DNA from: Escherichia coli
GTDB taxonomy: Bacteria > Pseudomonadota > Gammaproteobacteria > Enterobacterales > Enterobacteriaceae
Assembly: GCF_003334765.1 (NCBI RefSeq)
Contig: NZ_QOWT01000056.1
Reading direction: 5' to 3' (one strand)
Length of the DNA: 11,286 bases
The position numbers were made by a program, and so were the translations under genes. Positions 3,530 to 10,641 of the stretch are shown here, piece after piece. Under the pieces are notes generated by a model. It was not told where the DNA came from. It searched no databases and saw nothing but the letters and a program-made list of their open reading frames with translations. Every line of letters starts with the position of its first letter. Positions within the stretch are counted from its first letter, which is position 1.

Positions 3530-3540
3530 TTGATTATCAA
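3530..3540 (+). promoter_or_regulatory. Near-palindrome TTGATTATCAA containing a Fur hexamer (ATTATC)
   Basis: TTGAT-T-ATCAA near-palindrome; ATTATC is the reverse complement of the Fur hexamer GATAAT. Lies in the ydeM-yddA intergenic region. Confidence 0.25.
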
Positions 3541-3563
3541 TAGCATAACCATAACCACTGAAA

Positions 3564-3587
3564 ATGAAATATTCCTTTATATTTCAT
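3564..3587 (+). promoter_or_regulatory. Perfect 9-bp inverted repeat ATGAAATAT-N6-ATATTTCAT (candidate operator)
   Basis: ATGAAATAT (3564-3572) and ATATTTCAT (3579-3587) are exact reverse complements separated by TCCTTT. The element is about 85-105 bp upstream of the yddA ATG. No known regulator assigned. Confidence 0.3.
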
Positions 3588-3635
3588 ATTGTTAAATGAT
3601 ACTTAAATAAATTTCATCAGTAAATCATTGCCATA

Positions 3636-3685
3636 GATAATCATTGGATGGCACAATCAATTTTCGCTAATGATAACCATTCCCA
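3636..3685 (+). promoter_or_regulatory. Fur-box-like sequences upstream of and overlapping the yddA start codon
   Basis: Against the Fur consensus GATAATGATAATCATTATC: GATAATCATT at 3636-3645 matches consensus positions 7-16, and cTAATGATAACCATTccc at 3667-3685 matches about 15 of 19 with a 12/13 core (AATGATAACCATT). Consistent with iron (Fur) control of the yddA-yddB-pqqL cluster. Confidence 0.45.
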
Positions 3686-7782: not shown

Positions 7783-7806
7783 AACCGGGTAAATTCGCCC
7801 GGTTTT
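7783..7806 (+). terminator. Intercistronic hairpin between yddB and pqqL (possible attenuator)
   Basis: 7-bp stem AACCGGG (7783-7789) / CCCGGTT (7798-7804) with 8-nt loop, running into TTTT (7803-7806). It lies 18 nt after the yddB stop and directly before the pqqL start. Confidence 0.3.
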
Positions 7807-7809
7807 CGC

Positions 7810-10605
7810 ATGGAGATAATTATGAGAAACCTCTGTTTCTTACTGACGTTAGTGGCAACTCTGTTGCTCCCCGGGCGGCTGATTGCCGCCGCCTTACCGC
7901 AGGATGAAAAGTTAATTACCGGGCAACTGGACAATGGCTTGCGATATATGATTTATCCGCATGCTCATCCAAAGGATCAGGTAAATTTATGGCTGCAAAT
8001 TCATACCGGTTCATTGCAGGAAGAAGACAATGAGCGCGGCGTGGCTCATTTTGTAGAACATATGATGTTTAACGGCACAAAAACATGGCCGGGTAATAAA
8101 GTCATCGAAACATTTGAGTCAATGGGTCTGCGTTTTGGTCGCGATGTTAATGCCTATACCAGCTATGACGAAACGGTGTATCAGGTGAGTTTGCCGACTA
8201 CGCAGAAACAAAATCTGCAACAAGTGATGGCAATCTTCAGTGAATGGAGTAATGCCGCAACCTTTGAAAAACTCGAAGTAGACGCTGAACGTGGCGTAAT
8301 TACTGAGGAATGGCGTGCCCATCAGGATGCGAAATGGCGCACCTCTCAGGCGCGCCGCCCTTTCCTGCTGGCAAATACCCGTAATTTAGACCGTGAACCT
8401 ATCGGCCTGATGGATACTGTCGCCACGGTCACACCGGCACAATTGCGCCAATTTTATCAACGCTGGTATCAACCAAATAATATGACCTTTATCGTGGTCG
8501 GCGATATCGACAGTAAAGAAGCGCTGGCGCTGATAAAGGATAATTTAAGTAAGCTTCCGGCTAACAAAGCAGCTGAAAATCGCGTCTGGCCGACAAAAGC
8601 CGAAAACCACCTGCGCTTTAATATCATTAATGATAAAGAAAACCGGGTGAACGGCATCGCACTCTATTATCGCCTGCCAATGGTACAAGTGAACGATGAG
8701 CAAAGCTTTATCGAACAAGCTGAATGGAGCATGTTAGTTCAGCTGTTCAATCAACGTCTGCAGGAACGCATACAGTCGGGCGAGTTGAAGACTATTTCTG
8801 GCGGCACTGCGCGCAGCGTTAAAATTGCACCCGATTATCAGTCGCTGTTTTTCCGTGTAAATGCACGAGACGATAATATGCAGGATGCTGCGAATGCATT
8901 AATGGCAGAGTTGGCAACCATTGATCAGCATGGTTTTTCTGCTGAAGAACTCGATGATGTCAAATCTACCCGCCTCACCTGGCTGAAAAATGCGGTTGAT
9001 CAGCAAGCTGAACGTGATTTACGTATGCTGACCAGTCGCCTGGCATCCAGCTCATTAAATAATACGCCGTTCTTGTCGCCGGAAGAGACATATCAACTTT
9101 CGAAACGTCTGTGGCAGCAAATTACCGTGCAAAGTCTGGCGGAAAAATGGCAGCAGTTAAGAAAGAACCAGGACGCATTTTGGGAGCAAATGGTAAACAA
9201 TGAGGTTGCCGCCAAAAAAGCATTGTCTCCTGCGGCTATCCTGGCGCTGGAAAAGGAGTACGCCAACAAAAAGCTGGCGGCTTACGTCTTCCCAGGCAGA
9301 AATTTATCGTTAACAGTAGACGCAGACCCACAGGCGGAAATTAGCAGCAAAGAAACGCTGGCGGAGAATCTGACATCATTAACACTTTCCAATGGTGCCA
9401 GGGTTATTCTGGCAAAATCCGCGGGTGAAGAGCAAAAGCTACAAATTATTGCCGTATCGAATAAAGGCGATTTAAGTTTCCCTGCGCAGCAAAAATCACT
9501 TATCGCGCTGGCAAATAAAGCAGTTAGCGGAAGCGGCGTTGGCGAACTCTCCTCTTCCAGCCTGAAACGCTGGAGTGCGGAAAATTCGGTAACCATGAGC
9601 AGTAAAGTCAGTGGCATGAATACGTTGCTCTCCGTTAGCGCGCGGACTAATAACCCTGAACCTGGTTTTCAGTTGATTAACCAGCGAATCACCCACAGCA
9701 CGATTAACGATAATATTTGGGCATCGCTACAAAATGCTCAAATTCAGGCGTTGAAAACGCTCGACCAGCGTCCAGCGGAGAAATTCGCCCAGCAGATGTA
9801 TGAGACGCGCTATGCTGATGACCGCACGAAATTACTGCAAGAAAATCAGATTGCACAGTTTACTGCCGCAGATGCGCTGGCTGCCGATCGCCAATTGTTT
9901 TCATCTCCAGCGGATATCACGTTTGTCATTGTCGGTAATGTCGCAGAAGACAAACTCGTGGCGTTAATTACGCGTTACTTAGGATCAATCAAACACTCTG
10001 ATTCGCCATTAGCCGCAGGTAAACCATTAACTCGCGCGACGGACAACGCATCGGTTACTGTAAAAGAACAAAATGAACCTGTGGCACAGGTTTCACAGTG
10101 GAAGCGTTATGATTCCCGGACACCTGTTAATCTGCCGACGCGTATGGCGCTCGATGCTTTTAACGTCGCACTGGCAAAAGATCTACGTGTTAATATTCGT
10201 GAACAGGCATCTGGAGCATACAGCGTTTCTTCTCGCCTCTCGGTTGATCCTCAGGCCAAAGATATCAGTCATTTGCTGGCTTTTACTTGTCAACCAGAAC
10301 GACATGATGAACTGTTAACGTTAGCGAATGAAGTGATGGTTAAGCGTCTGGCTAAAGGGATCAGTGAGCAAGAACTGAATGAATACCAGCAAAACGTTCA
10401 GCGCAGCCTCGATATCCAACAGCGTAGCGTTCAACAATTAGCGAACACTATTGTAAATAGTCTTATTCAATATGACGATCCTGCAGCATGGACTGAGCAG
10501 GAGCAATTGTTGAAACAAATGACGGTAGAGAATGTTAACACTGCCGTTAAACAATATCTTTCTCATCCGGTAAATACTTATACCGGAGTATTATTGCCAA
10601 AATAA
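7810..10605 (+). CDS. pqqL: Periplasmic M16-family (pitrilysin-like) zinc metallopeptidase, 931 aa
   Basis: Inverted zinc-binding motif H-F-V-E-H at 8047-8061 (HxxEH). N-terminal signal peptide MRNLCFLLTLVATLLLPGRLIAAALP. The length is consistent with two tandem M16 modules in one chain. The second ATG at 7822 has the better Shine-Dalgarno (GGAGA 7812-7816, 5-nt spacing), so the true start may be 7822 (927 aa); the longest ORF is reported here. Confidence 0.9.
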   Translation: MEIIMRNLCFLLTLVATLLLPGRLIAAALPQDEKLITGQLDNGLRYMIYPHAHPKDQVNLWLQIHTGSLQEEDNERGVAHFVEHMMFNGTKTWPGNKVIETFESMGLRFGRDVNAYTSYDETVYQVSLPTTQKQNLQQVMAIFSEWSNAATFEKLEVDAERGVITEEWRAHQDAKWRTSQARRPFLLANTRNLDREPIGLMDTVATVTPAQLRQFYQRWYQPNNMTFIVVGDIDSKEALALIKDNLSKLPANKAAENRVWPTKAENHLRFNIINDKENRVNGIALYYRLPMVQVNDEQSFIEQAEWSMLVQLFNQRLQERIQSGELKTISGGTARSVKIAPDYQSLFFRVNARDDNMQDAANALMAELATIDQHGFSAEELDDVKSTRLTWLKNAVDQQAERDLRMLTSRLASSSLNNTPFLSPEETYQLSKRLWQQITVQSLAEKWQQLRKNQDAFWEQMVNNEVAAKKALSPAAILALEKEYANKKLAAYVFPGRNLSLTVDADPQAEISSKETLAENLTSLTLSNGARVILAKSAGEEQKLQIIAVSNKGDLSFPAQQKSLIALANKAVSGSGVGELSSSSLKRWSAENSVTMSSKVSGMNTLLSVSARTNNPEPGFQLINQRITHSTINDNIWASLQNAQIQALKTLDQRPAEKFAQQMYETRYADDRTKLLQENQIAQFTAADALAADRQLFSSPADITFVIVGNVAEDKLVALITRYLGSIKHSDSPLAAGKPLTRATDNASVTVKEQNEPVAQVSQWKRYDSRTPVNLPTRMALDAFNVALAKDLRVNIREQASGAYSVSSRLSVDPQAKDISHLLAFTCQPERHDELLTLANEVMVKRLAKGISEQELNEYQQNVQRSLDIQQRSVQQLANTIVNSLIQYDDPAAWTEQEQLLKQMTVENVNTAVKQYLSHPVNTYTGVLLPK

Positions 10606-10611
10606 TAACAG

Positions 10612-10641
10612 CCCCGTCAACACATCGTTGGCGGGGATTTT
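10612..10641 (+). terminator. Rho-independent terminator downstream of pqqL
   Basis: 10-bp stem CCCCGTCAAC (10612-10621) / GTTGGCGGGG (10627-10636) with one G-U pair and loop ACATC, followed by ATTTT. It starts 7 nt after the pqqL stop. Confidence 0.6.

Follow-up and report, generated by a model that had tools for sequence, protein, structure and literature searches.

What might the yddA-yddB-pqqL locus of Escherichia coli bring into the cell, and by which route? The window, the whole stretch of 11,286 nucleotides analysed here, carries at positions 3530-10641 the yddA-yddB-pqqL operon of E. coli, which is well studied. An earlier note, made from the letters and open reading frames, had read these genes as a protease-associated import system with no established cargo. 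Their identity is clear: the window is 99.955% identical to K-12 MG1655 across 75-11286, and the MG1655 annotation agrees. Some 15% of the complete genomes of E. coli are missing 80% or more of the operon. The features that bear on the question are the following.

3427-3464, + strand: hairpin between ydeM and yddA, an inverted repeat
3526-3660, no strand assigned: AT-rich region upstream of yddA (GC 0.36), with weak Fur-like hexamers
3666-3690, no strand assigned: main Fur-box cluster, overlapping the yddA ATG (15/19 positions at 3666-3684, 13/19 at 3672)
3670-5355, + strand: yddA (561 aa), FusD homologue, an ABC transporter in which an SbmA/BacA-type membrane domain is fused to a nucleotide-binding domain
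5393-7765, + strand: yddB (790 aa), FusA-family TonB-dependent outer-membrane transporter; signal peptide at residues 1-19
7783-7804, + strand: hairpin in the yddB-pqqL spacer, then UUUU
7810-10605, + strand: pqqL (931 aa), FusC homologue, a single-chain M16 metalloprotease of four domains in the periplasm; alternative start at 7822
10612-10641, + strand: terminator-like hairpin after pqqL, with a short U tract

The three genes are co-directional and tightly spaced, as first described, with spacers of 37 bp (5356-5392) and 44 bp (7766-7809) in which no known RNA family or tRNA was found. In other strains, PGAP sets the pqqL start at the ATG of position 7822, which has GGAG 7 nt upstream, and the second spacer is then 56 bp. 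Where does the module begin and end? We considered ydeN and ydeM, a sulfatase and its maturase (455-3379), as members and set them aside: a strong hairpin (3427-3464; ΔG -19.6 kcal/mol, z -6.1, none of 200 shuffles as stable) precedes yddA, is likely the terminator of ydeNM and forms the upstream boundary of the module. Neither gene was found adjoining the cassette in any relative examined. Downstream, the terminator claimed after pqqL is indeed there, as a hairpin at 10612-10636 with a 10-bp stem (ΔG -18.6 kcal/mol, z -5.6, 0/200 shuffles as stable) followed by AUUUUA; a consensus terminator scan did not pick it up because the U tract is short. The hairpin in the yddB-pqqL spacer was rejected as an internal terminator, as its stability is at chance level (ΔG -12.8 kcal/mol, z -1.3, 22 of 200 shuffles as stable), and published RT-PCR shows that the transcript reads through this spacer (PMC3855560). 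That experiment also answers the co-transcription check proposed in the earlier note: the transcript is shared.

YddA qualifies as an Rv1819c-type, SbmA/BacA-like transporter whose membrane domain is fused to a competent nucleotide-binding domain, which bears out the first description of it as a fused SbmA/BacA-like ABC transporter. It matches the Pfam families ABC_membrane_2 (E 1.8e-43), SbmA_BacA (2.3e-33) and ABC_tran (2.8e-18), its ATPase motifs are intact (Walker A GYSGAGKT at 400, signature LSSGEKQR at 487, Walker B WIFLDE at 507), and the closest solved structure is Rv1819c (6TQE; E 2e-67 over residues 34-552). The same SbmA_BacA / ABC_membrane_2 domain is shared by the SbmA/BacA and Rv1819c-type transporters, including the YddA of Burkholderia. 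However, the ATPase domain of YddA is missing from SbmA and E. coli BacA, and the genes of this whole group are free-standing, whereas yddA shares its operon with genes for an outer-membrane transporter and a protease.

YddB is a TonB-dependent transporter and not a generic porin. The predicted barrel with a TonB-box-like N-terminus is confirmed by a plug domain (PF07715, nt 5534-5878, E 1.3e-6), by the TonB box EEMTVYA at residues 31-37 (nt 5483-5503) and by the 22-strand barrel of 6OFR, to which the sequence is identical except for D351G (G351 in the window). The box lines up with DTILVRS, the FusA box validated by experiment, and the valine is invariant in eight relatives. Apart from itself, YddB matches a single solved structure, that of the ferredoxin receptor FusA (4ZGV, E 4e-78). 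No curated NCBIfam model reaches its cut-off with YddA, YddB or PqqL, and YddB matches none, the siderophore-receptor models included (at E <= 1e-5).

PqqL combines an N-terminal signal sequence with Peptidase_M16 and two Peptidase_M16_C domains, in keeping with the secreted two-module M16 peptidase first proposed. The HxxEH site is intact as HFVEH (residues 80-84, nt 8047-8061), E167 (nt 8308-8310) lies in an invariant EEWR motif, and H80, E83, H84, E166 and E167 are invariant across the alignment of relatives. From residue 27, where the PDB constructs begin, the protein equals 6OFS/6OFT except for L76R (R76 in the window), and it matches the FusC structures 6B03/6B05/6BRS over residues 9-930 (E ~1e-58). 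FusC is more distant from PqqL than is 9LDY, another M16 protein of solved structure (E 9.5e-82).

The difference at codon 76 (nt 8035-8037) deserves separate mention. It lies four residues before the catalytic HFVEH, and the R76L variant is private to the K-12 lineage, where it occurs in K-12 strains and in the crystallised PqqL. In complete E. coli genomes, R76 is found in 4191 and L76 in 354; PqqL-type relatives have R or K at this position, and R76 is also the residue in the six non-K-12 strains whose sequence was read across the site. All the published PqqL cleavage assays that we found were made with the K-12 protein. This observation on K-12 PqqL is possibly new.

How far does the likeness to the Fus ferredoxin-uptake system go? 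Fus of Pectobacterium and Dickeya likewise combines a FusA-family transporter, a single-chain periplasmic HxxEH M16 protease and a fused SbmA/BacA-type ABC transporter; the TonB box has the same position in the Fus receptor and in YddB, and both operons respond to iron limitation according to the literature. In one Dickeya operon (L010), TonB_C, Plug, M16 and SbmA_BacA-ABC genes follow one another as fusB-fusA-fusC-fusD, and the ABC protein, P0099, is encoded directly after fusC in both Dickeya loci (L010/L011). YddA is 37% identical to P0099 over its full length (554 aa compared, E 1e-128), against 29% for YddB and FusA (E 4e-98) and 24% for PqqL and FusC (full length, E 2e-57), the ABC component thus being the best conserved. 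The Fus-type architecture, and the view of these genes as its E. coli counterpart, are upheld, and the recommended comparison of YddB with FusA and of PqqL with FusC confirms homology both in sequence and in matches to solved structures.

The differences are as instructive. Identities to the Fus components are low (24-37%), and the gene order is TonB-TBDT-M16-ABC in Fus and ABC-TBDT-M16 in E. coli. Fus has FusB, which is required and directly contacts the substrate (PMC7593965, PMC13253070), whereas neither the E. coli cassette nor its close relatives have one. No TonB/FusB-like gene was found in the window, in agreement with the first reading of it, nor in its MG1655 annotation. Nor does PqqL cleave plant ferredoxin (PMC6793856). 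The 2019 definition of protease-associated import (Grinter et al. 2019, PLoS Genet 15:e1008435) does not treat a dedicated TonB as universal, though the mechanism in Pectobacterium depends on one. That class was built on two archetypes, of which YddB/PqqL is one; the window holds the same locus, with alleles that differ from the crystallised K-12 proteins by YddB D351G and PqqL L76R.

The distribution of the cassette speaks for a common function. The tightly spaced ABC-TBDT-M16 order occurs in four other, unrelated chromosomal contexts (Orbaceae L002/L003, L004, L018 and L019), none of them with a TonB-like gene adjoining the cassette; such a gene was found in the two Dickeya loci and near L007. 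In L007 and L008 the trio is kept in other gene orders, and its range extends from Enterobacterales to Pasteurellaceae and beyond; a search for the genomic context of P0039 (Corticibacter) gave no result. That the trio remains intact through reorderings and in unrelated contexts argues for an integrated function.

Control by Fur points to iron, and here the original description stood in part. Fur-like boxes are present, and none in the window matches better than the site at 3666-3684 that overlaps the yddA ATG. The cluster at 3666-3690 is the reverse complement of the published Fur box GGGAATGGTTATCATTAG (PMC3855560), and the list of Chen 2007 gives a 19.6-bit two-site Fur cluster at +8 of yddA (PMC2189734); the site at 3666-3684 agrees with published predictions and with ChIP data. 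In contrast, the upstream sites first named (13/19 at 3532 and 12/19 at 3630) are equalled or bettered in about 15% of spacer shuffles, and we discarded the boxes at 3530-3650, taken singly. As a group, GATAAT-like hexamers are enriched upstream of yddA (12 against 5.7 +/- 2.3 expected; 29 of 2000 shuffles reach 12). The same region holds a 12-nt inverted repeat (3561-3572 / 3579-3590, 92% complementary) and, in a promoter scan, a sigma-70-like site at 3628-3657 (TTGCCA, 18-nt spacer, CACAAT; 9 of 12 positions, with a TG extension). The literature describes the three genes as co-transcribed and Fur-dependent (including PMC3855560); in strain CFT073, iron chelation by itself gave no induction of the operon (PMC3855560).

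On balance we favour the reading that this region is a cassette of three genes under Fur repression, homologous to the Fus system of ferredoxin uptake and working as an import system of the kind first proposed. Under iron limitation, Fur would leave the box at the yddA start codon and a single transcript would be made. YddB, with its plug and wide extracellular pocket, would bind the cargo, probably a small protein or polypeptide with iron or a cofactor, and would move it into the periplasm by means of the housekeeping TonB-ExbBD, contacted at EEMTVYA. There PqqL, a secreted clam-shell zinc protease, would cut it, and YddA would take the freed cofactor or peptide fragments over the inner membrane. 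We infer that the cargo may be a protein, iron-bearing and a substrate of PqqL, and that YddA may import the product. This interpretation is supported in so far as it is in line with the published hypothesis of protein import.

Several results weigh against the mechanism as proposed. Human ferredoxins, globins and plant ferredoxin were left uncleaved by PqqL, and yddB and pqqL deletion mutants grew normally in iron-limited LB, even in a strain without the other iron transporters (PMC6793856). The negative CFT073 result, the absence of FusB and the genomes that are devoid of most of the operon point the same way. Moreover, the cargoes reported for YddA-family transporters include peptides, vitamin B12 and bleomycin; in the literature that we found, transport of an iron-sulphur cluster was shown for no member of the family.

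A peptide-like or unfolded ligand (a metallated peptide, a RiPP or a host peptide), entering through YddB with the help of the ordinary TonB, trimmed by PqqL and imported by YddA as a peptide, is possible though unlikely as an alternative. It would parallel the routes of microcin J25 (FhuA and SbmA) and of ubonodin (PupB and YddA), and the YddA of Burkholderia is needed for sensitivity to ubonodin, a lasso peptide (bioRxiv 10.1101/2022.03.09.483586). The SbmA_BacA membrane domain of YddA suits such a ligand, as do Rv1819c and the database names, which suggest 'vitamin B12/bleomycin/antimicrobial peptide transport'. The better conservation of the ABC component between E. coli and Dickeya, and the want of a substrate-pulling TonB of the FusB type in the cassette and its close relatives, fit as well. 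PqqL itself cuts short peptides that carry an F/Y-F/Y-V/A motif and none of the folded proteins tried (PMC6793856). However, the extracellular pocket of YddB, like that of FusA, has the dimensions for a globular protein of ~28 Å, and the loops of YddB are patterned as in FusA (PMC6793856), both the closed PqqL (a solution-scattering model) and the FusC crystal enclose a chamber with space enough for a small protein, and no peptide ligand is known. We regard as distinctly doubtful the related reading that the FusB-less cassette takes an unfolded or peptide-like ligand bearing iron or a cofactor, of which YddA would import the fragments, and that the negative substrate tests were compromised by the R76L change of the K-12 enzyme.

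Could the three genes be no more than loose neighbours? YddA would then be an exporter or general transporter, acting in porphyrin efflux or amino-acid uptake, and YddB a conventional receptor for a siderophore or other small molecule. Deletion of yddA lowers extracellular uroporphyrin by 56-60% (PMC11943725), metabolomics ties the gene to small metabolites, proline among them (PMC10971958), TCDB lists YddA under the peroxisomal fatty-acyl-CoA transporter family, with ABCD-type relatives among solved structures, and the RefSeq name of YddB is sometimes 'TonB-dependent siderophore receptor'. Nevertheless, these metabolomic and porphyrin effects are indirect, coming from overexpression and knockout screens, and YddB matches no siderophore-receptor model of NCBIfam at E <= 1e-5. 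The trio shares a transcript and Fur control and stays together through changes of gene order and context, which makes this explanation very improbable. A role of PqqL and its neighbours in taking up or processing pyrroloquinoline quinone (PQQ), suggested by a historical gene name given for complementation of Methylobacterium pqqE/pqqF mutants (as cited in PMC3855560) and by a weak similarity to PqqF, is largely refuted and can hardly be credited, since the PqqF model TIGR02110 (cut-off 320) gives PqqL 48.5 bits, E. coli does not make PQQ (PMC3855560), its high-affinity PQQ import is assigned to a different transporter, PqqU (PMC12124388), and Fur control indicates iron.

The cassette homologous to Fus is correctly recognised here but not new, because the literature already treats it as the Fus counterpart in E. 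coli: its architecture, homology, regulation and Fus-counterpart reading are all in print (Grinter 2016, 2019; Subashchandrabose 2013; Beauchene 2015). The 2016 study named yddB, pqqL and yddA as homologues of FusA, FusC and FusD (PMC5095587), and that of 2019 solved the structures of YddB and PqqL and found PqqL to be periplasmic, iron-induced and proteolytically active (PMC6793856), as the earlier note had expected. Of the checks proposed in that note, the structural comparison and the RT-PCR have been carried out in full, and the mutant growth and in vitro cleavage experiments in part. Its statement that the cargo is not established holds for the literature to mid-2026, in which no paper that we found, including one of November 2025, names the cargo of YddB/PqqL, and our analysis leaves this question where the literature has it. 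The sole practical addition of our analysis is a caution, namely that the PqqL of laboratory K-12 differs at a conserved basic residue by the active site. Piracy of proteins or peptides across the outer membrane is an unusual route of nutrient acquisition. The literature gives yddB and pqqL a fitness role in uropathogenic E. coli during systemic infection of mice, and because of this contribution the identity of the YddB/PqqL cargo is of real interest.

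The window was matched in every one of the 5426 complete E. coli genomes covered by the genome search, the best matches having 99.9% identity. Positions 75-11286 align without gaps, and with five mismatches, to 1571726-1582937 of K-12 MG1655 (reverse strand), whose annotation places the following genes on it:

455-2170, window orientation, ydeN
2207-3379, window orientation, ydeM
3467-3345, opposite strand, yneP, a small gene of 40 codons
3670-5355, window orientation, yddA
5393-7765, window orientation, yddB
7810-10605, window orientation, pqqL
10968 onward, window orientation, start of gadB

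The first 74 nt, which do not align to MG1655, belong to a multi-copy element that occurs on both chromosomes and plasmids, at most 42 times in one genome; its insertion point is 12 nt short of the end of ydeO, a gene uninterrupted in MG1655. These 74 nt terminate in the reverse complement of GGAAGGTGCGAATAAG, which we take to be the IS5 terminal repeat. Upstream of gadB, a perfect 9-nt inverted repeat, TAAATAACA / TGTTATTTA (10859-10888), overlaps TTAGGATTTTGTTATTTAAA, presumably the GAD box bound by GadE.

The coordinates of the three open reading frames give spacers of 37 and 44 bp, exactly as the earlier note had described. Pfam likewise bears out its reading of YddA as an SbmA/BacA-like fused ABC transporter (ABC_membrane_2, SbmA_BacA and ABC_tran, with Walker A, signature and Walker B motifs all intact) and of PqqL as a two-module M16 peptidase (Peptidase_M16 and two M16_C domains) with an intact HxxEH site (HFVEH, residues 80-84); the EEWR glutamates lie at residues 166-167. 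YddB has a Plug domain, and its N-terminus, said to resemble a TonB box, indeed carries EEMTVYA in the same alignment column as the experimentally validated FusA box DTILVRS (PMC7593965), the valine being invariant among eight relatives. The start of pqqL is ambiguous within 7810-7824: MG1655 curation uses the ATG at 7810, without a Shine-Dalgarno sequence, and PGAP chose, in six other strains, the ATG at 7822, preceded by GGAG at a distance of 7 nt and giving a more typical signal peptide (MRNLCF...).

The likeness to the Fus ferredoxin-uptake system of Pectobacterium and Dickeya holds for each component. Against all solved structures, YddB matched itself (6OFR) and then only FusA (4ZGV, E 4e-78), and PqqL matched itself (6OFS/6OFT), 9LDY and the FusC structures (E about 1e-58). 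For YddA itself no structure has been solved, and the nearest relative with one is Rv1819c (6TQE, E 2e-67), a mycobacterial importer of hydrophilic compounds. Among the YddA homologues retrieved is a Dickeya dadantii protein whose context, TonB_C, Plug receptor (856 aa), M16 protease (924 aa) and SbmA_BacA-type ABC transporter, is fusB-fusA-fusC-fusD. The pairs YddB/FusA (29% identity, E 4e-98), PqqL/FusC (24%, E 2e-57) and YddA/FusD (37%, E 1e-128) align over essentially their full length, and all three components are therefore homologous to Fus, the inner-membrane transporter being the most conserved and the protease the least. Structure matches and pairwise comparison thus confirm the proposed architecture, and the suggestion that YddB and PqqL are the E. 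coli counterpart is already in print: Grinter et al. (2016, PMC5095587) named yddB, pqqL and yddA as FusA, FusC and FusD homologues and noted the differing gene order. Much closer to PqqL than FusC is 9LDY (E 9.5e-82), an undescribed 'Peptidase, M16 family' of 916 aa, whose source and possible ligand may be informative about substrate specificity.

Closer relatives of YddB were found outside Escherichia, at 60% identity in one locus (L004) and at 43-45% both in the genome of a bee-gut member of the Orbaceae (L002, L003) and in another two assemblies (L018, L019). All five loci retain the order ABC transporter, TonB-dependent transporter, M16 protease and the tight spacing, amid unrelated flanks:

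L004: LytTR regulator, pdxJ
L002/L003: flavoprotein, asnA
L018/L019: yciH, DUF496/leu

The trio is thus a self-contained cassette that moved between genomes; in none of the five loci does a TonB gene or ydeN/ydeM adjoin it. More distant loci are rearranged: L007 has receptor, ABC transporter and protease, an ECF sigma/FecR pair and a TonB gene being close by, and Muribacter (L008) has receptor and protease, the ABC gene lying on the opposite strand. In L009 a cytochrome c peroxidase takes the place of the protease, a replacement already described by Grinter et al. (2019, PMC6793856).

Within E. coli, at least 80% of the operon is present in one piece in 4604 of the 5426 complete genomes; the remaining ~15% carry insertions or deletions. 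Of the operon, the ST131 strain EC958 (NZ_CP138232.1) retains no more than the final ~950 bp of pqqL, and in strain HCP5S3_I2 a stop interrupts yddB. With a G+C content of 0.44-0.49, the operon lies below the E. coli average (about 0.51). STEC O146 assemblies (L005, 9986-12364; L006, 6081-8444) contain an orphan yddB-like gene (70% identity, TonB box DEMIVYA), in an IS66/IS110-rich island beside a small Se_S_carrier-domain gene and followed by a terminator and a convergent ORF; neither yddA nor an M16 gene adjoins it in either assembly.

The regulatory picture requires one correction. Fur-like boxes had been placed ahead of the genes and a Fur site is present, but the best consensus match in the whole window (3666-3684, 15/19) overlaps the yddA ATG instead, and, taken singly, neither of the upstream matches (3532 and 3630) scores better than shuffled sequence does; upstream of yddA, GATAAT-like hexamers occur about twice as often as expected. 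The site at 3666-3684 is the reverse complement of the CFT073 Fur box published in PMC3855560 and corresponds to the two-site, 19.6-bit cluster at +8 of yddA of Chen et al. (2007, PMC2189734). The functional Fur site thus overlaps the start codon, the observation being otherwise confirmed. No Shine-Dalgarno sequence is recognisable at 3655-3672 (caattttcgctaATG), and the only sigma-70-like site near yddA (3628-3657) would give a leader of ~6 nt with the Fur box on the start codon. The AT-rich region upstream also contains a 12-nt inverted repeat, AAAATGAAATAT / ATATTTCATATT (3561-3590, 92% complementary, 6-nt spacer), which might be a site for a non-Fur regulator.

The terminator postulated after pqqL is a 10-bp G+C-rich hairpin (10612-10636, dG -18.6, z -5.6) followed by AUUUUA. 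A hairpin of comparable strength (3427-3464, z -6.1) lies between ydeM and yddA; yneP overlaps it and the ydeM 3' end in antisense. Folding gave no structure in the yddA-yddB spacer and, in the yddB-pqqL spacer, a modest hairpin not significant against shuffles.

The shared transcript and Fur dependence expected of the module had already been published: in CFT073, the three genes are co-transcribed by RT-PCR, the operon is derepressed in a fur mutant and induced >30-fold in urine, not by chelation alone, and yddB and pqqL mutants are at a competitive disadvantage during systemic infection of mice (Subashchandrabose et al. 2013, PMC3855560). Beauchene et al. (2015, PMC4676285) found Fur bound upstream and yddAB-pqqL RNA levels raised by RyhB. 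PqqL, whose structure was solved, is periplasmic and induced by bipyridyl and urine; it is active on peptides with an F/Y-F/Y-V/A motif and inactive on human ferredoxins, globins and plant ferredoxin, and the deletions show no growth phenotype in iron-limited LB (Grinter et al. 2019, PMC6793856). The tests proposed in the earlier note are thus mostly in print, structural comparison and RT-PCR in full, mutant growth for iron-limited LB only and in vitro cleavage for a few candidate proteins; the literature found holds no report of a YddB pull-down.

The best-supported reading is the published import model. The operon would be derepressed through Fur, YddB would capture a cargo that TonB energy moves inward, PqqL would cleave it in the periplasm, and YddA would transport the released cofactor or fragments. 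Of this, only the inventory of components, the localisation, the regulation and the peptidase activity are shown; we infer the class and iron content of the cargo and the direction and substrate of YddA. Two points tell against carrying the Fus model over unchanged. Pectobacterium requires its dedicated TonB homologue FusB, which binds ferredoxin and pulls it through FusA and for which housekeeping TonB is no substitute (PMC7593965, PMC13253070), whereas no such gene ever accompanies the E. coli-type cassette, as had been noted for this window. Moreover, characterised YddA relatives move peptides and other hydrophilic compounds, sensitivity to the lasso peptide ubonodin depends in Burkholderia on a protein called YddA (bioRxiv 10.1101/2022.03.09.483586), and iron-sulphur cluster transport is shown for no YddA-family member found in the literature. 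These points keep a cargo of peptide-like or unfolded form in play as an alternative. The links of yddA to uroporphyrin efflux (PMC11943725) and proline uptake (PMC10971958) are indirect, as they derive from knockout and overexpression screens. A PQQ role finds no support in the comparison with the PqqF model or in PMC12124388.

The import model is supported as the hypothesis now in print; the locus has already been characterised in detail, and nothing in the module reading is new. In keeping with what the earlier note said of the cargo, literature searches to mid-2026 turned up none for YddB, and neither a review from 2025 nor a FusA paper of November 2025 lists a PqqL substrate or a YddB cargo.

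Two amino-acid differences separate the window from MG1655. YddB G351 (codon 6443-6445) is private to the window strain among eight compared, Asp being found in MG1655, 6OFR and six other E. coli strains. At PqqL residue 76 (codon 8035-8037), four positions before the first catalytic histidine, K-12 is the outlier: Leu occurs in K-12 and the crystallised protein (6OFS/6OFT), and Arg in the window and six diverse strains. By a 41-mer centred on the site, R76 is found in 4191 complete genomes and L76 in 354, and all 40 L76 carriers sampled are K-12 laboratory derivatives. Three PqqL-type relatives (35-62% identity) have R in this column and a fourth K; S is found in FusC only. The K-12 allele was the one present in the only cleavage assays found (Grinter 2019, PMC6793856) and in the BW25113 growth tests; the fitness phenotype in mice was obtained with CFT073 (PMC3855560). 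Our findings make the open cargo question no more testable, this allele caution apart; judged from sequence comparison, the R76/L76 difference may be useful as such a caution.
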